From: a virus
Taxonomy: Duplodnaviria; Caudoviricetes
Strand: one strand, 5' to 3'
Length of the DNA stretch: 64,000 bases
Virus record (IMG/VR): IMGVR_UViG_3300033121_000493
Coordinates: 32,001 to 96,000 of that record
In this document: piece by piece, positions 5,087 through 64,000 of the stretch
Position numbering within the stretch: position 1 is the first letter of the stretch
How the letters are laid out: each line of letters begins with the position of its first letter
Notes under the pieces: generated by a model
Told to the model about the DNA's origin: nothing
Seen by the model: only the letters and a program-made list of their open reading frames with translations
The model's database searches: none
Program-made: the position numbers and the translations under genes

Positions 5087-6745
5087 TTACACCTCTGGCG
5101 TATTAGCTTTTGTTACAGCCACATCAATGTCAGACGGTCGAACAAAGAATGCTACGGTACGTGTAGACACAGACTCTTCCATAGTTTTAGGTATCTCTAG
5201 TTCATCAGTACCGCTGACTATTTTTGTAGCACCGCTTGGCAGCGTAATCTTTGCCAACATACTAATTGGCATATTGATAATAGCCTGCTTATCCAATTGG
5301 CCTTGAGCTGCGTCCACTATAACAGATGCCGGTAAGTTACCTGTTGTAAACCCCAGGCTGTTTACACGGTTAGCCACAGCATTCTTGATAGCAGCTACGT
5401 CCACATTGCCAATGTCTTTTGTCACTACTTCAATACCTATATTGCACATAGCAGGAATAGGCGCTTTAACCAAGTAGTCACCAGCTGGGTTGCGCACAGA
5501 GCGCTCATTAATAGAATCCTGGATAGCCGCTATGTCAGGCATACGCAGTACGTATATATCAAACTCAGCCGTATCATTAATAGTTGTAAGCGCTGTGCCT
5601 TCTTCGATCACTTGGATACTAACCGTGCTGTAACGTGTAAACGCGGCTTCTGCATTGTTAGTTATGTCTGGAACAAATTCACCATTACTAGCCACGTTGT
5701 TATACGACCACGTAACATTCTCTATGCCTAAAGAATCTACAAACGTCGGTTCACTATTAGTTGAATCAACAAACGGTGTTTCGCCGCTTTTGTAAACGCC
5801 GAGTATCACGTATACACCGGCGGCTTGATCACGCGTCAGATTAATAGTAAATATCTTGTTTACTGTATCCGTCAACGCGCCAGCAACAGTAATCATCTCT
5901 TTAACCGGCGCATATTCAGACCTAACATATATATCTACTTTGCCGCCCTGACTGACGTTAAAGATATTATGTGCGTCTCTACGCATCTCAGGATCGCCAA
6001 ACCCAATAATCGATACAGCGCGTACATTAGGAAACTTGGACTTTATGAACGACTCAATGTGAACACGGCCACTCATTACTTTAGGCGCTAGCCCTAGCTG
6101 AGCCTTAGCAGCCAACGTAGCGTTATCGTCACCCGGTCTGCCATTGATAAAGTCACTGGCAGCCCATATATCTACTAGGCGCGGAATAGTCTCGTCTGTA
6201 GTAAATCGTGTGCCCTCTGCTACGTTGTACTCAGACCCTATAGCCTCAGCCTCAACATCGATAATAAACTCATATGTATTATCTGATCTGGCCACAATCA
6301 AACGTGAGCTGTCATTTACTACGTTGCCAGCACTGGTAACGCCAACAAAAGCACGCGTTGTTACAAACGTTAGTCCGTTGGCAAAGAACTTAGCTCCAGC
6401 ATCAATAGGCGTTACTACGTTAGACGAGATAATGATACGAAGACTACCATCGGCCACGGAACCAGCATCTCGCTCTAGCAGCAAGTTAGACAGTACGCCA
6501 GATACTATTGTGTCGTCGGCAAGTGTTGGATCTTGGCTTATCTGTTGCAATGACATACTACGCCGCAGTCTATCCATGTTGTCAGACGCATAGGCGTAAA
6601 ATAACGCAGCTGGACGTATCAATATATCGCGCAGAACGCGACCACGTGATAAATCCAAACTAGGATAAGAATCTTTTAGTAACTGCACCAAAAGATTCTC
6701 TGCCTGGTCTATTTCAGCTTTTGTTAAGTCTTTGATGCTAAGCAT
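5087..6745 (-). CDS. Baseplate J-like (gp6) wedge protein
   Basis: LDLSRGRVLRDILIRPAA, VEAEAIGSEYNV and GKVDIYV motifs typical of Baseplate_J; follows the gp25-like gene. Confidence 0.8.
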   Translation of the reverse strand: MLSIKDLTKAEIDQAENLLVQLLKDSYPSLDLSRGRVLRDILIRPAALFYAYASDNMDRLRRSMSLQQISQDPTLADDTIVSGVLSNLLLERDAGSVADGSLRIIISSNVVTPIDAGAKFFANGLTFVTTRAFVGVTSAGNVVNDSSRLIVARSDNTYEFIIDVEAEAIGSEYNVAEGTRFTTDETIPRLVDIWAASDFINGRPGDDNATLAAKAQLGLAPKVMSGRVHIESFIKSKFPNVRAVSIIGFGDPEMRRDAHNIFNVSQGGKVDIYVRSEYAPVKEMITVAGALTDTVNKIFTINLTRDQAAGVYVILGVYKSGETPFVDSTNSEPTFVDSLGIENVTWSYNNVASNGEFVPDITNNAEAAFTRYSTVSIQVIEEGTALTTINDTAEFDIYVLRMPDIAAIQDSINERSVRNPAGDYLVKAPIPAMCNIGIEVVTKDIGNVDVAAIKNAVANRVNSLGFTTGNLPASVIVDAAQGQLDKQAIINMPISMLAKITLPSGATKIVSGTDELEIPKTMEESVSTRTVAFFVRPSDIDVAVTKANTPEV

Positions 6746-19635: not shown

Positions 19636-22428
19636 TTACGCCACAAGCGTTAGATCAATCACATTCAACGGATATGGGATCGTCAACGCTATGTTAATTA
19701 CAACTTGATCAGGATTTACGCTGTGGGCGCGTAGTTCTGTAATCTCAGCTGAAATTAACTGTGGGCCTAAATTAGGCGTAACACCTTGTGATTTTAGATA
19801 ATCGATCGATCCGAATATCTGACGTCTTAGCAGTACAAACAATCTTGGCTGAACATTAGCTCTACCAATATATGGCTTAAGCTGGTTGTAGAACGTATAG
19901 CTGATAGAGTCAACATTCTTCGTAACCATCAACTCGCGTGTATTAACATCTGTGCCCAGTGTGCTGAGCTCGTGACGCGAGTAGATAACACCAGTCGTCG
20001 GCTCTTGAGCAAGAATCCACACACCAGACTCTGCCATCGTATTCAGCTGATCAGACGAGAAGTATTGAGTGGTGCGGCTTACTTCGCTGAATCCACCAAT
20101 CTCTACATTCGTCAAACCTTGCTGTGGTACAACGCCAGAAACCAAACCAGCCAACGCAGCACAGGCAAAGTAACCTGGGATCTGGATACCAGCGCCGTCT
20201 TCAATAACATCTGGCCACACATAGAAAACTCTTCGGCTGGCAAAGCTGGCAGCCTTGGTTCCATATAGAGCAGCCTCTTCGTCCTTAGTAAGGCTACGTT
20301 GGATAGAGAACTTACGAGCTACGTTAATAGCCGCTGATGGACCAGATAGCAGCTTAAGGCGTTGATTAGATACAACACTATCAACAACATACTCATCATA
20401 CGACGAGTTACCAAAGCCATCGCCAGCGTAGTTGATTCTAAATATGTCACCAGCACGTACGCCTAGGTCATTAAAGCCACCACCAAATGGAGGCGTCCAG
20501 TCTACTAGTGTGTACTGCGTGCCAGAAGCATCTGGGTCATCAGTTACCGTGGCTACCAGATCATCTTCCGTATACTCTGTCGTACCGCCCAGTGGGTATA
20601 CCTCACCAAGATCCAACAGAGGATCAACCGAGCTCGACAGACCATTCAGGAACGTAATACGCCACTTATTAACTTCTGGAGCTGACATATTAGCTACGTG
20701 GCCAGCTACAGTATTCTGAATAGTTGCATCGCGCGTAAGAGGCACAATCGTATATACATCATCTCTTAGACTCGCTTTATCCAAAGCTGTGCTATAACCA
20801 GCATTGTCATTAGTAGGCACAGCCATAAACAACACTTCTGCACCAGCAGAATTACGCAGGGCATACCACACACCAAGCGCCAGTGGGTTATCCGTGGTTA
20901 CTGGACCTAGGGTGCTTTCAACGTCATCTATATTAGTAAGGCTGTGGATCGACGTAGCGTACGTCTGTAGCAAGCTTCTATACGTAACGTATACGATGCT
21001 CCACAGACCGCCTGAATCAGCACCAAGAGTAAGGACGCGCTTGTTGCCGCTGTTATCAAGGAATTCACTGTCATAAACAGTTACACCAGACTTCAGCGTA
21101 ATCTGCGTAGTACCCTGGTCCCAATTAGTATTAGGCGGATTAGTAACTCTGTCGGACGGCAGGCTGATTGTCTTCTTAACGTATAGCTCCAGATTCAAAT
21201 CTGCGCCGAAGAACGCCGAAGACGAATTCAAATTCTGCCCAACAGCCTGTAGCTCAGCAGGGAGGTTGTCAGCCAGGACCAAAGTTCTATACGCTTGCTC
21301 AGTCTTACCCGTGCAGGCAATATACCACTTTTCACCTTTAATGAGCTTAAGAGTTCCACCCGGCTCGTTGAAGTTGACAGTCACTCCCTTACTACCTATA
21401 GCTACGTCAGATAGCTCAGTAACTATATGTGGGCCGCTGATATCAATACCGTTCGTAGTGGAAATCGAAATTTCTGCAGACGTCGACGTACCGCCTTTTG
21501 TCACCTCAACAATATATGTAGTGTTGCTGTTACTAACAAAGCTACCACCGGCTGTAACCGTTGGCACAACGTAGTGAGTACGACAAGTTAGAACAAACTT
21601 GTCTCCCACATTCCACTCGCCGCTACCGCTCCAGTTAAACGTTGTACCGCGTGTGCCAATTGTTTGACCGCTGGCTGTCAGAGCTACATCTACGGCGTCA
21701 TCAGTACCGCTAGCGCTCGTCACTTTCGCTAAGCCGCCCACGCCGCTAACAGAAGCTGTAGTCACTTCAATAGTGTACGTCTCTGTTACGTGGCCAGACG
21801 CCAAACCGTTGTATGTGCTGGCTGTCGTAGCACCAATAGCGTTTGACCCTATCGAACGTGAACCGCCGCCTGTACCAGTATTGGATACGGCAGGGTTACC
21901 GCCTGATACGCCACCACTGTTATCTACGTCAGAGGCTGGCGACGTATCAATCGACGTAGACGATAGATCAGGAACAAGGTCTACGATACGCGACCACAGG
22001 TGATACGTAGTGCCGTCTACGTTAGCGTACACGTGGGCAATATCACCCACCTTTACATCGCGGTCATAAAAACCAGCGCTGCGGTCATAGCCATTGGCTG
22101 TTTTGAACACAACGCTGTTGGCGCGAATACGGTTGGGCTTGTAGTGGACAGCAGAAATATCATCTGCGCCACCAGACGCATTGCTGTAATACTTAAGCAA
22201 CGCATCTTTAACAGTAACACTGGTAAAGGTTTGGTCTACGACTCCACCAGCTGGACGGCCTGGCCAGTTGTAGGCAGCATCGCTAAGTGGGTTATACTGC
22301 CCAAGCTTACTTTGCGTTACAACATTGAAGTGTGGACCAACGACAAAAGCCCGCAGCGGATTAGCCACCGCAGCAGGTGTCGCAGCAAATTCTTGATGTA
22401 CTTTAACTTGTGGGACAGTATATGCCAT
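19636..22428 (-). CDS. Contractile tail sheath protein
   Basis: MAYTVPQVKVHQEF N-terminus; AALAGLVSG..QGLTN; C-terminal PYPLNVIDLTLV. Confidence 0.9.
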   Translation of the reverse strand: MAYTVPQVKVHQEFAATPAAVANPLRAFVVGPHFNVVTQSKLGQYNPLSDAAYNWPGRPAGGVVDQTFTSVTVKDALLKYYSNASGGADDISAVHYKPNRIRANSVVFKTANGYDRSAGFYDRDVKVGDIAHVYANVDGTTYHLWSRIVDLVPDLSSTSIDTSPASDVDNSGGVSGGNPAVSNTGTGGGSRSIGSNAIGATTASTYNGLASGHVTETYTIEVTTASVSGVGGLAKVTSASGTDDAVDVALTASGQTIGTRGTTFNWSGSGEWNVGDKFVLTCRTHYVVPTVTAGGSFVSNSNTTYIVEVTKGGTSTSAEISISTTNGIDISGPHIVTELSDVAIGSKGVTVNFNEPGGTLKLIKGEKWYIACTGKTEQAYRTLVLADNLPAELQAVGQNLNSSSAFFGADLNLELYVKKTISLPSDRVTNPPNTNWDQGTTQITLKSGVTVYDSEFLDNSGNKRVLTLGADSGGLWSIVYVTYRSLLQTYATSIHSLTNIDDVESTLGPVTTDNPLALGVWYALRNSAGAEVLFMAVPTNDNAGYSTALDKASLRDDVYTIVPLTRDATIQNTVAGHVANMSAPEVNKWRITFLNGLSSSVDPLLDLGEVYPLGGTTEYTEDDLVATVTDDPDASGTQYTLVDWTPPFGGGFNDLGVRAGDIFRINYAGDGFGNSSYDEYVVDSVVSNQRLKLLSGPSAAINVARKFSIQRSLTKDEEAALYGTKAASFASRRVFYVWPDVIEDGAGIQIPGYFACAALAGLVSGVVPQQGLTNVEIGGFSEVSRTTQYFSSDQLNTMAESGVWILAQEPTTGVIYSRHELSTLGTDVNTRELMVTKNVDSISYTFYNQLKPYIGRANVQPRLFVLLRRQIFGSIDYLKSQGVTPNLGPQLISAEITELRAHSVNPDQVVINIALTIPYPLNVIDLTLVA

Positions 22429-29746: not shown

Positions 29747-31081
29747 TTACGCCAATGCTCGAAGCGATGTCAAATTTTGCACGAATTCACTACGGCTATT
29801 ATTTGTTCGACTAGCACTTGTAGCGAAGGAAACAAGATACGCGGCATACTCTGCCGCTACACTATCAGCCTTATACTCGTCGAGTGCTGAGGCTGATTTC
29901 ACTACTTGTTGAACTGGAGCAGGCGTAACTATAGCCTTACCTAGATCAACTCTATACAGACTACATCGTGCCGCTAACGAATCGATCGCGCTGGCCAGCT
30001 TAGGTGTTGGGATATCTTTGGATTTCCCATCGTAGCTACCATTGTTCATAACCTTACTGTCTTTGTTCTTTAGATACGCAACTATTTTTTTACGTATTGC
30101 AGATGTCTTTACATCTGCCTTTTTACCTAGACCAGCGATCTCTACAAAGTCACCAAGCGATAAACAGATACCAGCTTTATGTAACCGATCAAACAGACTA
30201 TCTTTGTCATCACAGGCTTTTAACATTTCAAGTTCGTTATCTGTGGCGTCTAATCCGTGTAGCGCGCTACAGTAGCCAGCCAGGTCTAGAGCTTTACTAA
30301 TCTTTTCCATAACTGGCGCTTTTAGATATACCACACTAGATATAGGCGTCGGGTATAGTGCAGCGCTTATAGCAAATGTTTCGGCTAGCTCAGCACCACT
30401 AATAACTTTACCAGCAGACGCAGCTTTATCCAATCGTCTGATAGTGTACGCTACTCTATCAGCAGGACGCCACACCTTAGATATGTCAAAGAAGTCTGGA
30501 TCTGGGTTAGCTACATAAACCTGACGCCCGTCATCCAGGATACTACCTAGCATATCACTGGCATGTTTGCAGTAATCTTTTCTGGTCTTAGCTTTGTTGT
30601 CACAGATAGAGCATATATCATGACTAACCAAGCAAGACATAGATACTGGAAAACTTCCATTCTTTTCCAGTTCGGCTAAGTCCTTAGCGCACTTGTTGTT
30701 ATCTAGTGCAACAATCAGCTCTACGCGACCCATTGGCCCGTTGTGGGCCGATGCCACTACTCTGCCTAAAGCTTTAGATTTATCTTTATTTTCATGATTG
30801 TGAAAATAGCCAGCCTTTAGAAACGTATTGTGCCGCGTTTGATTTACATTGCGGCTGAAGTAATCGCCGTTTCTATTAGCACCAGTAGTTTCACCGTCGC
30901 CCAAAGCCAGCAGGTGAATTAAAGTTTCTTTGTCGTCTGAAGCGTACTTGCTGAAATCAAATAAATGTGAGGCAGCCCGCTTAACTAGCCAAGATGAGTC
31001 TACGCCACGACGATGCATAGGCACGAGAGCAGCTTCTGCTTCGTTAAAGCCGAAAGACCCAGATAGAATACTCTTAAACAT
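29747..31081 (-). CDS. Prohead maturation protease
   Basis: ANRNGDYF...HNHEN...GRVVAS...VSMSC..DICSIC..C motif set of HK97-type large-phage head proteases. Confidence 0.8.
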   Translation of the reverse strand: MFKSILSGSFGFNEAEAALVPMHRRGVDSSWLVKRAASHLFDFSKYASDDKETLIHLLALGDGETTGANRNGDYFSRNVNQTRHNTFLKAGYFHNHENKDKSKALGRVVASAHNGPMGRVELIVALDNNKCAKDLAELEKNGSFPVSMSCLVSHDICSICDNKAKTRKDYCKHASDMLGSILDDGRQVYVANPDPDFFDISKVWRPADRVAYTIRRLDKAASAGKVISGAELAETFAISAALYPTPISSVVYLKAPVMEKISKALDLAGYCSALHGLDATDNELEMLKACDDKDSLFDRLHKAGICLSLGDFVEIAGLGKKADVKTSAIRKKIVAYLKNKDSKVMNNGSYDGKSKDIPTPKLASAIDSLAARCSLYRVDLGKAIVTPAPVQQVVKSASALDEYKADSVAAEYAAYLVSFATSASRTNNSRSEFVQNLTSLRALA

Positions 31082-38029: not shown

Positions 38030-40834
38030 TTAATAGACACCTTTAGTTTCTAAATCTTTACCAAATGTAGTGCCTTCTGCCAGCGCGTGTCCAAAGTTAG
38101 GTCCGTGTATTTGTGAACTAGATCCACGTCGAGCAGCGTCCATAAATCCTTTGCCTACATAAAATCCTTGAAGGCGCTTGAACCAATCTTTGTCATATAT
38201 GGTTGATTCAAGTGCTCTTGTCATGTACGGTTCAAATGGTGGTGGTTCTGTATGCGCAGTTATAGAATTTACACTGTGCTTATTAAGTGTCTTGGCAACA
38301 CTAGGAGTTATACGCGTACCAATAGAGTAATGTAACACTGGCTGTTCTAAGAACTTACCTACAGACTTATCTGGCTTATCAGTAACACTACCGTGGCGCG
38401 GCTTCCATCGGCTAGCCAGGTCGTCATAGGAAATGATGTCGTCTGGTATTAGATTTTCTCCAGCGTCAAAGTCTGTCACTTTAACGTGGTTTAATAGACC
38501 GCGCGCCATAATCTCTATGTTACGACGGTTTACTTTTATACCACTGTTAGCCAACGTTTCTCTTAGTGTCTTCATAAAGTAACGTCGACCTTCGCCTACG
38601 TGCTTAAAGCGTACTACTTCAGCAGGATTAGCTATACCTGTAGATAAAGCGTCACCAGCCTCTACAGTATCACCGACCTTAACTTTTAATGTTGCCTCTG
38701 GTGGCACGTAATGCTTTTCACCGTCAACTAGTACATAGTTACCGCCCTGCGGCGCTGCCTCTACACTTTCCACTCTACCGTCTTGTGAAGCTAAAGTAGC
38801 AGCCCCAACGAAAGTACTTGGAACACTGACAAGCTGTTCTATAGCTCTAAACCCAGACAGCCCAGTCTCATGCGACGAACCTATAACGCCCGCGCCGTGC
38901 TTAGCGCTATTAGATACTATTAGACCATTGGCCAATACAAACAAATGGTCTTCATGATCTACTTCTATGTCCATCGTGTTAAGTTGGCCGACGTCATGTG
39001 CAAACCAAAATTTTAATGTGTAATCGGCGTGTTTCCCACTTTCATATACAACAACCCGCTGTTTATCTACATCGCCAACTGGCATTACAACGTGATCGTC
39101 TTCATTATTTGATACAAGGATTTTATGATCTTTGGTGGATACAACAGCAATCTCGTGGCCACTGTATTTAGCAAATACAGATTTAATACACGGACGAATC
39201 CCGTTGTTGTACTTGTTCAATACTCTAACTGGGAAAACGTTACCAAACTTGTTAGCTCCCAGCACTAACTCCTGTAACTCTATGTCTTTAAGTTTCTTTA
39301 CAGACCCGTCAGCCATGCGAACTTCAGTATTCTCATCCAAGCATAACTGAGACTGGCTAAGTGGCTCACTTATAGCCTGCGCGGCAGATATACCTACGTT
39401 ATCACCAATCGCACTACGACCTCTATCACGCATTCCTGCAGCTAGTCTAGGCACACCAATCCCACCAGCAGATATAGGAGAATGGATTAGTATCTCGTCG
39501 TTGTCTTTTCTCAACTCTTTAAGTATCGACGGTGTTATTGTCGTACCGGCTTTGAACTTGCCGTAATCTCTGGCTAGCGCAGCTCCAACACTATCGTCAT
39601 CGTCTGTGTCTACTGGCAAACCAGTTCCAGCGCCTGGCTCTTCATCAGTTACTATCAGTCTGGCATTGGCGTTGGCCAAAAGTTTGCCTAGATAACCGGC
39701 ATCGGCAGTCGAGTTTGAAACGATTAAACCGTTCTCCAACACGAATAGATGGTCCTCATTTGCCACTTCTATATCAAAAGTATCAACAGTGCCAACTGCT
39801 ATTTTTTCAATGGCACGCGATGTTTTACGGTACGCTTTTGTATCACGTGTATTATCAAGTAGCTGCGCGACGCAAGCAGAAAAATTGTTCTTGTGTGGGT
39901 TTGCCCAGAATTTTGCACGGCTTAACGGCTGGATACTAAAAGATCTATCCCAGTGTACTGTTTTATTTGCGCGAGTAATACTACAAAGGATTTTATGATC
40001 CTCTGTGCAGATAAGCTCTAGTGTGTTATTTTCGTGTTCTAGCTTGAGCTTTCGTCCGTTTCTGAATTTAAACTTGTAGCACTCACGCGGCCCATTCGCG
40101 AATACTTTAGTAACCAGTGTTGGAAAAGTTTGACCGGCTTTATTTGCCCCTAGCACCCAGTCACCAGGTTGTATGGCTTCAATTGGCTTTACTGTAAAGT
40201 CCGCCATGCGTACTTTGGTACCTACTGAAACGCATCGCTTGGTGGATATGATGCCCTTTCGTGTTCCATAGCTCGTTGCAAAGTATTCAGCAGGAGATAG
40301 CCCCTCTGAATAGTTACTTAAAATAGGAATAGGTATAGGCTTATCGTTATGGTCGGCAACTAACAAATCAGCCGCTCTTAGAGTACTAAGGTTAGCCGCA
40401 CTACCTCTAGCGCCAGATTTGATCGCCATAGCAAAGTTATTGCCTTCGTCGAGACTTTCTTTGTATGTAGCGTCGCGTAAAGGATCTATCTTACTCATCA
40501 GAAAACTGATTAGCTGTTGATTCCTGGTTTTCTCATCTAGCCGCTTGTCAGCAAACAACTTAGATACATGCTCTTTTATTTGCTGAATAATTGGTTCTTT
40601 AGCTTTTGCAGTTTCTAGGTCTTTCAGCGACAGCGATGTACCAGATGAAAACGCTACATCAGCGCCTACCTTAGAAAGATTATGTACTATCTCTTTATAT
40701 TTGTCCGGATAACGCTGCTGCACTTCTCGTAGTACATTCATCATGGTCTTTTTGTCCATGACTCTATCGTAGTCCCGCATGTCTTCGGGAAGTGCTTCAT
40801 TAACCATTAATTTGCCAAGAGTAGTTGTTAACAT
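38030..40834 (-). CDS. rpoC: DNA-directed RNA polymerase beta' subunit, C-terminal part, with two inteins
   Basis: SGARGS; NYSEGLSPAEYF; bridge helix GTRKG..[intein]STADAGYL; trigger loop AAQAISEPLSQSQL[intein]SAKHG; RRNIEIMAR. Confidence 0.92.
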   Translation of the reverse strand: MLTTTLGKLMVNEALPEDMRDYDRVMDKKTMMNVLREVQQRYPDKYKEIVHNLSKVGADVAFSSGTSLSLKDLETAKAKEPIIQQIKEHVSKLFADKRLDEKTRNQQLISFLMSKIDPLRDATYKESLDEGNNFAMAIKSGARGSAANLSTLRAADLLVADHNDKPIPIPILSNYSEGLSPAEYFATSYGTRKGIISTKRCVSVGTKVRMADFTVKPIEAIQPGDWVLGANKAGQTFPTLVTKVFANGPRECYKFKFRNGRKLKLEHENNTLELICTEDHKILCSITRANKTVHWDRSFSIQPLSRAKFWANPHKNNFSACVAQLLDNTRDTKAYRKTSRAIEKIAVGTVDTFDIEVANEDHLFVLENGLIVSNSTADAGYLGKLLANANARLIVTDEEPGAGTGLPVDTDDDDSVGAALARDYGKFKAGTTITPSILKELRKDNDEILIHSPISAGGIGVPRLAAGMRDRGRSAIGDNVGISAAQAISEPLSQSQLCLDENTEVRMADGSVKKLKDIELQELVLGANKFGNVFPVRVLNKYNNGIRPCIKSVFAKYSGHEIAVVSTKDHKILVSNNEDDHVVMPVGDVDKQRVVVYESGKHADYTLKFWFAHDVGQLNTMDIEVDHEDHLFVLANGLIVSNSAKHGAGVIGSSHETGLSGFRAIEQLVSVPSTFVGAATLASQDGRVESVEAAPQGGNYVLVDGEKHYVPPEATLKVKVGDTVEAGDALSTGIANPAEVVRFKHVGEGRRYFMKTLRETLANSGIKVNRRNIEIMARGLLNHVKVTDFDAGENLIPDDIISYDDLASRWKPRHGSVTDKPDKSVGKFLEQPVLHYSIGTRITPSVAKTLNKHSVNSITAHTEPPPFEPYMTRALESTIYDKDWFKRLQGFYVGKGFMDAARRGSSSQIHGPNFGHALAEGTTFGKDLETKGVY
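38909..39343 (-). mobile_element. Mini-intein 2 (145 aa) in the RNAP trigger loop
   Basis: Starts CLDENTEVRMADG; block B STKDHKIL; ends HLFVLANGLIVSN with Ser at +1. Confidence 0.9.
39713..40234 (-). mobile_element. Mini-intein 1 (174 aa) in the RNAP bridge helix
   Basis: Starts CVSVGTKVRMAD; block B CTEDHKIL; ends HLFVLENGLIVSN with Ser at +1. Confidence 0.9.
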
Positions 40835-60096: not shown

Positions 60097-60360
60097 TTAC
60101 AACTCGTAGAAGTCGGGGTCTATACGTTTTACTAAATTTCGGCACCAAGTGCGTAAAGTACTCATAGCCTGTCGATTCCTGGACCGTAAAATGTAACGAT
60201 CCAAACAGTATAGCTTAATTATTAATCTACTGCTACGAAATCCGTCTATATCGCCAATACACGAAAACCGAATATCCCTACGCGCAGACTCGCAGATAAC
60301 CTGTATATCCCAAGACTTTTTGCCATTAGCCCTGTAGTATTTTAATTCTGGTGTCTGCGT
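60097..60360 (-). CDS. First array member, overlapping the RNAP 3' end, ACG start (not in ORF track)
   Basis: GGAG-N6-ACG CAG ACA CCA GAA TTA AAA, i.e. (M)QTPELKYY..GKKSWDIQV...LIIKLYC. Confidence 0.55.
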   Translation of the reverse strand, partial: TQTPELKYYRANGKKSWDIQVICESARRDIRFSCIGDIDGFRSSRLIIKLYCLDRYILRSRNRQAMSTLRTWCRNLVKRIDPDFYEL

Positions 60361-63300
60361 TTATTTCTCCACGTCTGAACGCCGCTATAGCGTCCGCTTT
60401 GGTAGCAAATGTTTTTGCTTCATGTGCGCTTTGATCGTGAGTAGCCCTAAATAGCCCGTGCAAAAATTCCTGGATAGGTGCATAGTGCACGTCAAAATTT
60501 CTAGCACTGAGTAAATTAGCGCTAGGCATAAGCTTACGCTTAGCTTCACTGACAGCTTCATCACTGACAGGCACGTGGAACTGCATTCTGTCACCGTCGA
60601 AATCAGCGCCGTAGCCACTGACGATTGTAGGGCTTAGCTGCATGGTTTGCGTTTTAGCCAACACAGGCCACGCAGCCATTATTCCGAACTTGTGTAGCGT
60701 AGGAGCTCGGTTGATGAGTACCGGACGCACTTTCATTTCTTCAATCAAAGCGTCCTTAGCAATTCTATCTTTGTTGGCAACCATATTAACAGCCTGTACG
60801 GCAGGAGTACCCCGTCTGACCAACGACCTAATGATAAATGGTCGGTATAGAGTCCATGCTTTCTCTTCTGGCAAACCTACTTGATCCATGTCTAGCGACG
60901 GGTTTGGCGTAATAACAGCGCTACCGACCATGTCAGTTGTGCTGCCTATGATCTTACGCTGAAACACTGAAAACTTTGGCGACGACCGCAGTCCTAGCGC
61001 ATGCGACAAAATGCCTTTTATGTTCTTCTCTTGTAACTTTGGCTGCAGCGGATCTGACAATCCGACCAGTGCCTTGAACGAGCTGTACAACGCTAAACGC
61101 TCGTCACCTGCGGCTTCGTGGCCTAACGTATCTGTTACGTCCTTTACGTTGTTGTTAGCACGTATGATCTCTTTGTACAAGTAGTTAGGGTCACTAACTA
61201 TTGTCATACCTTTAGGCCCAGTTGCGATAGGCCGATACTGAGGCGGCATAATAGGTACTTTAGTCAGCATCAGCTCTTCTGGCTTAATGCCTGTTTTCTT
61301 TAGCATTGTAAAAACGCGCAACCGCTTAATAGCGTCGTCGCGGTTTGTTTTTGATCCATTAGTGACTAGATCTTTTAGTCGATCAATCTCGCTGTGTACG
61401 TTGAGAGACTGTAGCGCGCTACGCAATGCTTCCGGCCCTGTCTTTTCTTTAAGCATGCGTTTACCGGCTATAACATCTTCCAACTGACCTTCAGTAAGCC
61501 CCAGCACTTTACGGATAGAATCTTCGAAAACAGGATTTGGTAATGGGTGATTAAGATTAACGTGCGTAAACCCTGTCCCTTCAGGACCACCAGTTAAACC
61601 TATATCAAACAACCCACCACTTATCGGCTTCATCGTATCGAAATCAAGAGTATCGTCGCTCTTGACTTCGCCTCTAGACATCTTGTCTATGTCTTTATCA
61701 GTCAAAGCCATGATGTTTACGAAGTTACCGGTCTTGCTAACATTGATGCCAGCAGACCTTAAATCGTCCATAAACTTCTTGTACACGAATGGTGCTTCTG
61801 GTGTTGGCGGCGGATACCCCAAACGAAACGCACGCCAGAAATCGTCATTTCGCTGCCCGCGTATGAGCTTAGCATCACGCAGTACTTCAGTAGCACCAGC
61901 AGACAATAATGACATTGTCTCTAGCCCACCTATACGCTTGGCAGAGCCTTCACCACCTTTAGCAGGAACTTTGTCAATAGTGTATGAACCGTCGTCTGCA
62001 CGAGCGTCGGCTTTGTCTTCTGCAGTATGGTGTAGTTTCATCCAGTACTGCACGCCAGACAACACATTATTCACATTAGCGTTTCTATTTGGATCAAATA
62101 GAGTTTCAGTATCCTTTATGCCGTATTTCTTTAGCTCGTCCTGTACAGTCTTTAGATTACTTCCATCTTGGAAAGACGGTACAACATATTTTTTACCTAA
62201 CTTAGCTGCTACCTTACCAAGCGCGAGCTCAAGTATGGCCGCAGGGTTAGATCGAGAGATAGTACCAAACGGATGGATTAGCAACTCTAGCGGATTTTTA
62301 TCACTATCGTGCGGCATTTGATCATCAGGTACTATTGATGAAATAACACCTTTACCGCCGAAGCGCATCGTTAGCTTATCACCAACCACACATGGTCGGT
62401 ACGCTTTTACGATAACGTTTACATCTTTTGGTCCGGCATGTACATCTGTAACTATTCCGTCGTCATCGTATTCCCACACGTGCGACGAATCCATAAATCT
62501 AGCTTTGCTACTGCGCGTTAATACGCCTTGACCCTTAGCAGATTTTTCAGAAATACTAAGAATCAGGGGATCACCCTTCTTCACAACAGTTCCTGGTTTG
62601 ATTAAACCGTTGTCTGTAAAGTTCGCTAGCTGAGCTTTATTGTACGTTGTAGGAAACGCGCTGATAAATGCATTCCTACTAACTTTCTGCCCAGGCTCAA
62701 TGTCCATTGAATGCTGGTACATATGCTCAGACGCCATTTTCTTAGCGGCGCTCTCGCTAACAACAATGGCATCTTCTACGGTAAGACCTTTGAACGGTAA
62801 GTAAGCAGTGCGTAAATTTTTGCCTAACGCCAACTCACCTTCGTCATTTGTGAAATTTGTTTTAGCCAGTAACTGGCCAGGTTTGACATAGTCACCTGGC
62901 TTTACCATAGGTGTATTGTTTACAAACCCACGTCGATTATACGGAAAATTATCGTACAGTTCGTAGCGTTTAATGCCGTTGGGAGTTTTGATACTGATGC
63001 TATCTTTATCCAACTTAGTAACTATTCCAGTTGCATCAGATCTGACTATGCCAGTTTTGCTGCCTAAGAATCTTTCAAAAGAATCATTAGGCTCACCAGA
63101 TGGCCTGCTTGTCTGAACAAACGGTGCTTCGCCGTCTTTGATCGCTAGAGCTTGCGTTGCCATTCTGGCTACCATGTTAGTTCTGTGGCCCTTGATGGAC
63201 GACAGAAACGGCACAAGGTGCGCCAACGTAGACATCATGTGCTCTGGATGCGGGAGCTCGTAGTCAACTTTGCTTGGATCTACGTACTTAATGCGACCGC

Positions 63301-63991
63301 GTACTAATGCTTGTGCCGGTCTATTCTCAGCTATAGCTTTTTTCAACTCACCTGGAAAAGCAATAACGGATCTAGTCGCATCCGTAGATGGTACAAAGAT
63401 CTTTTTGCCGGTCTTATCCAAAAACTGTGAGTACAGTTTACCGTCACTACCACGGTGAACGTTGTACGCAGTTCTATTGTCTACACCGGCTTTCTCAGAT
63501 TCTGCTGTACGAACTACGTCGATGAAACCCATATACGAAGGCTGCACGGCACGTGACTCGTCAGGAATAGCGTCTGTATCTGGAATACCACCATAGCCAA
63601 GTCGAGACACACGCTGCAACTGATCATAGATGTCTAGAGGATTTGATTCCTCCAGCGGCATACCAAGACCGGAACTAAGCAGAACAGATTCCAATTGTTT
63701 GTTACGTTGCTGGTGATTAAGTATAGGATTAAGTGACCTGGCGTATGTAGCTTTCCACAGAGCTCGTCTAGCCACACCACCAACGTCAGCTTTAATACGC
63801 TCAGCCAGCATCTCTGCCGGACCAATCACCTTCTGATACGAGATGTTGTCACGGTCATCTGTATCCATTTCACCTTTACGAATCTTCAGCAACTTATGTG
63901 TAGCGGCCAGTATTGCCTGCGGGCTAACCGTATCGAAGCGTGTACCAAGAGTTTCCTCTGTAATATTGGGGTCTAGCTTCATAGCAGCCAT
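60326..63991 (-). CDS. rpoBC: DNA-directed RNA polymerase beta-beta'(N-terminal) fusion; frame open at the window edge, so probably 5'-partial
   Basis: Beta motifs DDRDN, EDAIVVSE, GDKLTMRFGGKGV, MKLHH, GSAKRIGGLE; beta' motifs GGLFD, PPQYRP, NRAPTLH and catalytic GADFDGD. Confidence 0.93.
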   Translation of the reverse strand: MAAMKLDPNITEETLGTRFDTVSPQAILAATHKLLKIRKGEMDTDDRDNISYQKVIGPAEMLAERIKADVGGVARRALWKATYARSLNPILNHQQRNKQLESVLLSSGLGMPLEESNPLDIYDQLQRVSRLGYGGIPDTDAIPDESRAVQPSYMGFIDVVRTAESEKAGVDNRTAYNVHRGSDGKLYSQFLDKTGKKIFVPSTDATRSVIAFPGELKKAIAENRPAQALVRGRIKYVDPSKVDYELPHPEHMMSTLAHLVPFLSSIKGHRTNMVARMATQALAIKDGEAPFVQTSRPSGEPNDSFERFLGSKTGIVRSDATGIVTKLDKDSISIKTPNGIKRYELYDNFPYNRRGFVNNTPMVKPGDYVKPGQLLAKTNFTNDEGELALGKNLRTAYLPFKGLTVEDAIVVSESAAKKMASEHMYQHSMDIEPGQKVSRNAFISAFPTTYNKAQLANFTDNGLIKPGTVVKKGDPLILSISEKSAKGQGVLTRSSKARFMDSSHVWEYDDDGIVTDVHAGPKDVNVIVKAYRPCVVGDKLTMRFGGKGVISSIVPDDQMPHDSDKNPLELLIHPFGTISRSNPAAILELALGKVAAKLGKKYVVPSFQDGSNLKTVQDELKKYGIKDTETLFDPNRNANVNNVLSGVQYWMKLHHTAEDKADARADDGSYTIDKVPAKGGEGSAKRIGGLETMSLLSAGATEVLRDAKLIRGQRNDDFWRAFRLGYPPPTPEAPFVYKKFMDDLRSAGINVSKTGNFVNIMALTDKDIDKMSRGEVKSDDTLDFDTMKPISGGLFDIGLTGGPEGTGFTHVNLNHPLPNPVFEDSIRKVLGLTEGQLEDVIAGKRMLKEKTGPEALRSALQSLNVHSEIDRLKDLVTNGSKTNRDDAIKRLRVFTMLKKTGIKPEELMLTKVPIMPPQYRPIATGPKGMTIVSDPNYLYKEIIRANNNVKDVTDTLGHEAAGDERLALYSSFKALVGLSDPLQPKLQEKNIKGILSHALGLRSSPKFSVFQRKIIGSTTDMVGSAVITPNPSLDMDQVGLPEEKAWTLYRPFIIRSLVRRGTPAVQAVNMVANKDRIAKDALIEEMKVRPVLINRAPTLHKFGIMAAWPVLAKTQTMQLSPTIVSGYGADFDGDRMQFHVPVSDEAVSEAKRKLMPSANLLSARNFDVHYAPIQEFLHGLFRATHDQSAHEAKTFATKADAIAAFRRGEINADTRIKILQG

Positions 63992-64000
63992 AGCTTTAGC

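Follow-up and report, generated by a model that had tools for sequence, protein, structure and literature searches.

Two putative mini-inteins in the bridge helix and trigger loop of a phage RNA polymerase as probable members of one intein family spread over neighbouring sites

The beta' subunit gene of a multisubunit RNA polymerase (RNAP) from an uncultured tailed phage is interrupted by two inserts, one in the bridge helix and one in the trigger loop, and the locus raises the question of what these inserts are, how they are related to each other and what they mean for the polymerase. The gene lies in a 64,000-nucleotide window (the whole stretch of DNA that was analysed, bases 32001-96000 of the 202,582-bp IMG/VR virus record IMGVR_UViG_3300033121_000493, which is rated complete by CheckV), and its parts are listed in Table 1. 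A first-pass annotation had described the inserts as sibling inteins of 174 and 145 amino acids (aa), with coordinates that prove exact to the base in the translated open reading frame (ORF), and had proposed that one intein lineage moved ectopically within the gene, that the pair may act as a conditional switch and that the copies could recombine. The explanation favoured here, to which we give a probability of roughly 0.9, is that both are canonical class-1 mini-inteins, selfish elements at a late, endonuclease-less stage of the homing cycle, and that they belong to one family that has repeatedly moved among at least 13 sites of this gene. Each copy would descend from an allele at its own site and not from the other copy.

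The 934-aa ORF product is assigned to the C-terminal half of beta' (hereafter beta'C) by Pfam, with RNA_pol_Rpb1_5 at 4e-14 and Rpb1_4 as well as Hom_end_hint and Hint above their cut-offs, and by a phmmer search of Protein Data Bank (PDB) chains, in which bacterial beta' was matched from about residue 550-660 onward at 1e-28. Intein 1 separates ISTKR from STADAGYL, and intein 2 separates SQSQL from SAKHG. The first site corresponds to the junction of L788 and K789 in the labile centre of the E. coli bridge helix, with the Ser at position +1 in the place of K789, and the second to the junction of M932 and R933 in the trigger loop, three residues before the catalytic His (H936 in E. coli), which is His646 of the C-extein. 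The placement of both inserts in the two mobile catalytic elements of RNAP, already given in the first-pass annotation, is borne out by this mapping. For the trigger loop, the well-known E. coli residues M932, R933 and H936 served as anchors; the bridge-helix numbering was anchored on E. coli F773, D785-T790 and V801/D802 (PMC3077646).

Removal of both inserts leaves an extein of 616 aa, and relatives do carry empty alleles of the kind that the first-pass annotation had proposed to look for: these intein-free proteins of 615-616 aa are about 60% identical to the extein and align with it without gaps at the junctions. One of them, P0017, also aligns unbroken through both sites to solved beta' chains, its bridge helix (...kmstanagflgkql...) facing ...alrtadsgyltrrl... 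and its trigger loop (...episqsqlsakhgagv...) facing ...epgtqltmrtfhtggv.... In a search of 5.8 billion proteins, more than 1,000 beta'C homologues were found, and their lengths are step-like, with insert-free proteins of 608-633 aa that are about 60% identical, proteins of about 750-830 aa with one mini-insert, and proteins of about 920-1050 aa that hold two mini-inserts or one large insert; longer ones extend up to 1633 aa. The beta' genes of these phages range from about 610 to more than 1600 aa purely through intein load. Among the homologues there are also several (P0010, P0028, P0050, P0083, P0108 and P0130) with long C-terminal tails or insertions of about 100-540 aa near extein position 606 that are not intein-like, and P0130 (2577 aa) additionally has a NUDIX domain.

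Both inserts begin with Cys, end in Ser-Asn and are followed by Ser (...IVSN and then S). Intein 1 has Cys1, the block-B motif TEDH and DIEV..EDHLFVLENGLIVSN before the Ser, and intein 2 has Cys1, the block-B motif TKDH and DIEV..EDHLFVLANGLIVSN before the Ser. The conservation of these residues was counted over 357 members of the family described below, an earlier alignment having comprised thirteen mini-inteins from five phages. Block-F Asp is present in 100% of the copies, Cys1, the block-B His and the terminal Asn in 99% each, the block-B Thr in 97%, His133 in 95% and the penultimate Ser in 90%. The AlphaFold2 model of intein 2 adopts a HINT fold (predicted local distance difference test score, pLDDT, 93; predicted template-modelling score, pTM, 0.87); Foldseek relates the model to many solved inteins with probability 1.00 and an expectation value (E) of 4e-8, and its template-modelling (TM) scores to the Npu DnaE, Mtu RecA and Npu DnaB inteins are 0.77-0.83. 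Sequence similarity to solved inteins is marginal (PI-SceI, E 0.007). At the level of profile models, the precursor scores 42.1 bits against PF05203 (cut-off 32.1) and 29.9 against PF01079 (cut-off 29.7), and the NCBIfam model intein_Cterm TIGR01443 gives 20.2 and 18.8 for the two inteins (cut-off 15.6). Intein 1 matches Hom_end_hint in Pfam. Neither intein has a LAGLIDADG or HNH match there, in agreement with the first-pass annotation, and 145 and 174 aa are mini-intein sizes. The two sequences, together with the model of intein 2, identify both inserts as putative canonical class-1 HINT mini-inteins that lack an endonuclease.

These two inteins are members of a large family. In total, 357 inteins were mapped in 233 beta'C proteins, beyond which the family has hundreds of further members, the inserts being placed by pairwise alignment with cheap gap extension and by hidden Markov models (HMMs) of the intein termini, as hmmalign to an HMM of the extein misplaced long inserts. 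They occupy 13 exact sites, each in at least two proteins, and two further singletons lie at positions 197 and 269. Six sites fall in the bridge helix (extein positions 185, 195, 196, 199, 200 and 208; E. coli F773 to T797), six in the first arm of the trigger loop (314, 318, 320, 323, 324 and 327; E. coli I923 to just past H936) and one at position 347. Up to four inteins were found in one protein (P0012, at locus L017:501-4160, and P0027), and neighbouring inteins can be separated by as few as 4 residues (323 with 327, 196 with 200), by 8 residues (200 with 208) or by 9 residues (314 with 323). In P0012 and P0027 neighbours stand 4-9 extein residues apart, for instance ...N/SSKH/C... in P0027, where slashes mark the junctions. 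The directly adjacent sites 323 and 324 were never occupied together in the sample. Mini forms of 116-227 aa (n=191) and large forms of 342-418 aa (n=160) occur at every major site, and a LAGLIDADG domain was confirmed in the large inteins where these were scanned.

The family is nearly private to this gene. When 1.84 billion cluster representatives were searched by phmmer with intein 2 as the query, only 420 hits were returned, and 117 of the 119 new proteins in its top 150 were beta'C; the one other host gene found among these 119 further top hits was a terminase. The metagenomic protein in question (P0232, 858 aa) is a T4-type terminase large subunit and carries a 356-aa LAGLIDADG form of the family in its Walker A loop, between GSNQ and SGKT. 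In trees built from the splicing core and from the endonuclease domain, 30-42 changes of site label were counted, compared with about 97-99 for shuffled labels and a minimum of 9, so that the labels are strongly clustered yet far from forming one clade per site, and the well-supported branches alone require several site switches. At site 200, with 49 occupied alleles, the extein tree requires 33 changes of occupancy, and at site 323, with 87 occupied alleles, it requires 45. At every occupied site the +1 position holds Ser in nearly all cases and Thr in the others, and in alleles that are empty there it holds Ala, Gly or Ser; at site 200, for instance, Ser follows the intein in 49 of 49 occupied alleles, and the empty alleles have Ala (87), Ser (33) or Gly (22).

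In the homing cycle, empty alleles are invaded, the intein is fixed, its endonuclease decays, and the intein is then lost before reinvasion. The co-occurrence of empty alleles, large LAGLIDADG inteins and mini-inteins fits a population in which all stages of this cycle are present, overlaid by ectopic retargeting inside one gene. The family is nearly confined to beta'C in a large clade of uncultured phages with genomes of about 200 kb, and would have jumped repeatedly between positions that precede a Ser or Thr. With odds that we put slightly above even, these two elements, bridge helix and trigger loop, constitute in this clade of phage RNAPs an unreported and exceptionally dense hotspot of one nearly private LAGLIDADG-intein family, which has been retargeted to at least 13 positions within two elements of about 25-35 residues each, with up to four copies per gene and every stage of the homing cycle represented.

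The proposal in the first-pass annotation that the inteins form a domesticated conditional switch, in which splicing responsive to redox state, temperature or metals would time the maturation of the polymerase, has some attraction, as two splices would be obligatory for activity, many members of the family have a second Cys, at position 52, and conditional splicing of two inteins in one protein is known from mycobacterial DnaB (PMC6195587). It is nevertheless improbable in view of the distribution of the family. Among relatives sampled by similarity of the C-terminal extein alone, any intein was present in 22 of 119, which leaves about 80% of them intein-free; the extein tree calls for dozens of changes of occupancy, and endonuclease-bearing forms are found at the same sites. 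Cys52 is present in both copies but in only 67% of the family, the others having Val, Ile or Leu, a pattern suggesting that the residue is structural and buried, and no conserved regulatory feature was found. A redox-partner role for this cysteine of the motif 'NG.R.C' was also considered and is unsupported, given that only 67% of copies have it. The rapid turnover of occupancy is more readily expected of selfish inteins, the explanation that we prefer.

Still less probable is a recent origin of one intein from the other through intragenic ectopic duplication in this genome. The two do share a family and many motifs, and a genome-wide Hint search found no match besides the two inteins of beta'C (P0001), so that the family is in no other gene of this genome. 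Their mutual resemblance, noted in the first-pass annotation, is far beyond chance (34% identity overall in BLASTP, E 3e-24; 41-43% over the splicing core). However, a core identity of 43% is that of random family members, for which the medians are 43.7% within a site and 40.4% between sites, and inteins 1 and 2 rank only 78th and 53rd of 169 among each other's relatives. At the nucleotide level, identity in the best conserved blocks is 53-67%. Judged from the sequences, the term "siblings" is valid at the family level only, with an identity that does not rise above the family background.

The closest relative of intein 1 points instead to inheritance at its own site. Together with the intein at site 200 of P0003, the closest relative of the host gene, intein 1 forms a pair with 100% support, the two being 67% identical. 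Residues 1-123 of intein 1 are collinear with residues 1-123 of the 390-aa P0003 intein (65% identity), and residues 125-174 with its residues 341-390 (68% identity); the 217 residues missing from intein 1 (124-340 of the P0003 intein) hold the LAGLIDADG domain PF14528. The exteins of the two phages are likewise 67% identical, the same divergence as that of the inteins, and because the intein and its host gene have thus diverged to a like degree, the best reading of intein 1 is as an allele that was inherited vertically and lost its endonuclease by deletion, a probable derivative of a full-length LAGLIDADG intein at the same site. The full-length homing intein would have lost about 217 residues in this process. 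Of the ectopic movement proposed in the first-pass annotation, the part that concerns the family has held up, with one family at 13 or more sites, 117 of 119 further hits in beta'C and repeated site switches; the derivation of one of the present copies from the other has not, and in the phylogeny intein 1 groups with the same-site allele of P0003 rather than with intein 2.

Recombination between the two copies, the further possibility raised in the first-pass annotation, is unlikely. The longest exact DNA word common to both inteins is 15 nucleotides, and the repeats between them are 69-79% identical over at most 49 nucleotides; such an event would also delete 123 essential residues of the polymerase.

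The remaining alternative, that the inserts are non-splicing, lineage-specific insertion domains derived from HINT modules and kept permanently like SI3 in the E. coli trigger loop, has a precedent in the large permanent trigger-loop insertions of bacteria but can be dismissed as the least probable of all, since Cys1, the terminal Asn and Ser+1, which serve no purpose other than splicing, are all conserved, an insert halfway along the bridge helix would interrupt a helix that is both essential and continuous, and insert-free orthologues are the majority.

Several points weigh against the interpretation as class-1 mini-inteins that each descend from an allele at their own site. The NCBIfam model intein_Nterm TIGR01445 scores below its cut-off (17.6 against 24.5), and the penultimate residue is Ser instead of the usual His. 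The latter was already noticed in the first-pass annotation and is a trait of the whole family; natural exceptions to the penultimate His are known elsewhere, with Gly-Asn ends in Pno RPA2, Cre RPB2 and Ceu ClpP (PMC1635734), and the absence of this His therefore does not bar membership of class 1. The databases contain no close allele of intein 2, the best core match being 48% identical and at the same site, which makes the history of this copy harder to read than that of intein 1. In addition, the trees were built with FastTree on 138-242 columns, which makes the number of site switches approximate, and splicing is deduced from sequence, fold and comparison only.

With regard to expression of the polymerase, the 934-aa precursor would be translated whole, and each HINT domain would then excise itself by the standard route, in which Cys1 undergoes an N-S acyl shift, the N-extein passes to the Ser+1 side chain, the terminal Asn cyclises and an O-N shift follows. 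The two excisions would restore a continuous bridge helix and trigger loop in the 616-aa subunit. The partner subunit, in which beta is fused to the N-terminal part of beta' (beta-beta'N), matches the Pfam families Rpb2_6 (3e-49), Rpb1_2 and Rpb1_1 (Rpb2 domain 6 and Rpb1 domains 1-2) and carries no intein in this phage. As the Rpb2_6 locus is single in the genome, the phage has one multisubunit RNAP only, composed of the beta-beta'N fusion and beta'C. Given this single enzyme and the positions of the inserts, both splices would be required for an active polymerase and hence for any phage-encoded transcription.

Table 1. Positions of the beta'C gene, its parts and other genes of the window (window coordinates)
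Feature	Coordinates	Strand	Remarks
beta'C precursor gene	38030..40834	(-)	ORF and translation; 934 aa, mature product expected to be 616 aa
N-extein	40235..40834	(-)	aa 1-200; ends within the bridge helix at ...GTRKGIISTKR, E. coli beta' up to L788
Intein 1 (predicted)	39713..40234	(-)	aa 201-374, 174 aa; bridge-helix site, extein position 200/201
Middle extein	39344..39712	(-)	aa 375-497; remaining bridge helix through first trigger-loop arm (...AQAISEPLSQSQL)
Intein 2 (predicted)	38909..39343	(-)	aa 498-642, 145 aa; trigger-loop site, extein position 323/324
C-extein	38030..38908	(-)	aa 643-934 and stop codon; begins SAKHG
Partner RNAP gene, beta fused to beta' N-terminal part	60326..64000, beyond window end	(-)	1499-aa frame in the genome
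P0002	35446-37740	(-)	764 aa
Tail sheath-like gene	19636-22428	(-)	flank region
Baseplate J-like gene	5087-6745	(-)	flank region
Prohead protease-like gene	29747-31081	(-)	flank region

The sheath, baseplate and prohead-protease genes in the flanks (Table 1) place the beta'C gene within the module of structural (late) genes of a phage with a contractile tail. The beta-beta'N gene is about 20 kb away. Directly downstream of beta'C lies P0002, which matches neither a Pfam nor a PHROG family; in the related contigs L009, L018 and L019, beta'C is likewise followed by a gene of comparable size (704-828 aa), and the pair looks syntenic. When the beta'C gene was compared with 50,697 phage records, megablast gave no match, and tblastn gave relatives of at most 29% identity over substantial stretches of the query, so that no close cultured relative was found among these records. 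The closest RNAP of a cultured phage is that of Salmonella phage Arash (gp206, beta; gp216, beta'; 25% identity in tblastn; PMC10585845), the polymerase subunits of which are abundant in purified virions (PMC10585845). By analogy, the spliced enzyme of the present phage may be packaged in the virion. Arash and the metagenomic mReC phages (PMC7481178) are, like the present phage, large and tailed and encode a beta and a beta' themselves; inteins, however, are unmentioned in both papers (PMC10585845, PMC7481178). No published intein in a phage beta' was found in the open-access literature, although such an absence is no proof.

Inteins in the largest RNAP subunit have been reported from archaea (Mja rPol A', Mja rPol A'' and Nph rPol A''; PMC1635734), and inteins in the largest and second-largest subunits from Nucleocytoviricota and eukaryotes (PMC1635734, PMC10710043). 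Like the inteins described here, they lie at conserved positions near the active site, use several non-allelic sites per gene and need to be spliced before assembly; the present host is, in contrast, a phage-encoded fragment of a bacterial-type beta', with one family at 13 or more sites in two short elements. The haloarchaeal MCM helicase, with four nearby intein sites (PMC10643990), is similar in that the gene is essential, the sites are close, occupancy is variable and neighbours interplay. It differs in the number of sites (at least 13 here), in the spacers, which here go down to 4 residues (323 with 327, 196 with 200), and in the host, a phage RNAP and not a cellular helicase. As for the solved class-1 mini-inteins Npu DnaE (4kl5), Mtu RecA (2in0, 3ifj) and Npu DnaB (4o1r), the HINT fold, Cys1, the TxxH motif, the block-F Asp and the terminal Asn are common to them and the inteins of this phage, whereas sequence identity is 19-24% and the latter have a penultimate Ser in place of His and Ser at +1.

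For this phage the result is mostly clarifying, in that the two inserts would be ordinary selfish inteins, neither a special switch nor a recent duplicate pair. For annotators, it implies that variation in the length of the beta' gene among these phages reflects intein load. The broader interest lies in the family. To our knowledge, the ectopic spread of inteins is poorly documented because most host genes with several sites hold unrelated inteins. In the present gene, one family is represented by hundreds of copies at many neighbouring sites, with matching empty alleles. As one family, many neighbouring sites, both endonuclease states and empty alleles come together in this gene, site switching, retargeting of the endonuclease, interference between neighbours and the +1 Ser 'footprint' all become open to comparison. 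The hotspot of this family merits a dedicated study and, if true, would provide a natural series in which to follow inteins and their endonucleases as they reach new sites.

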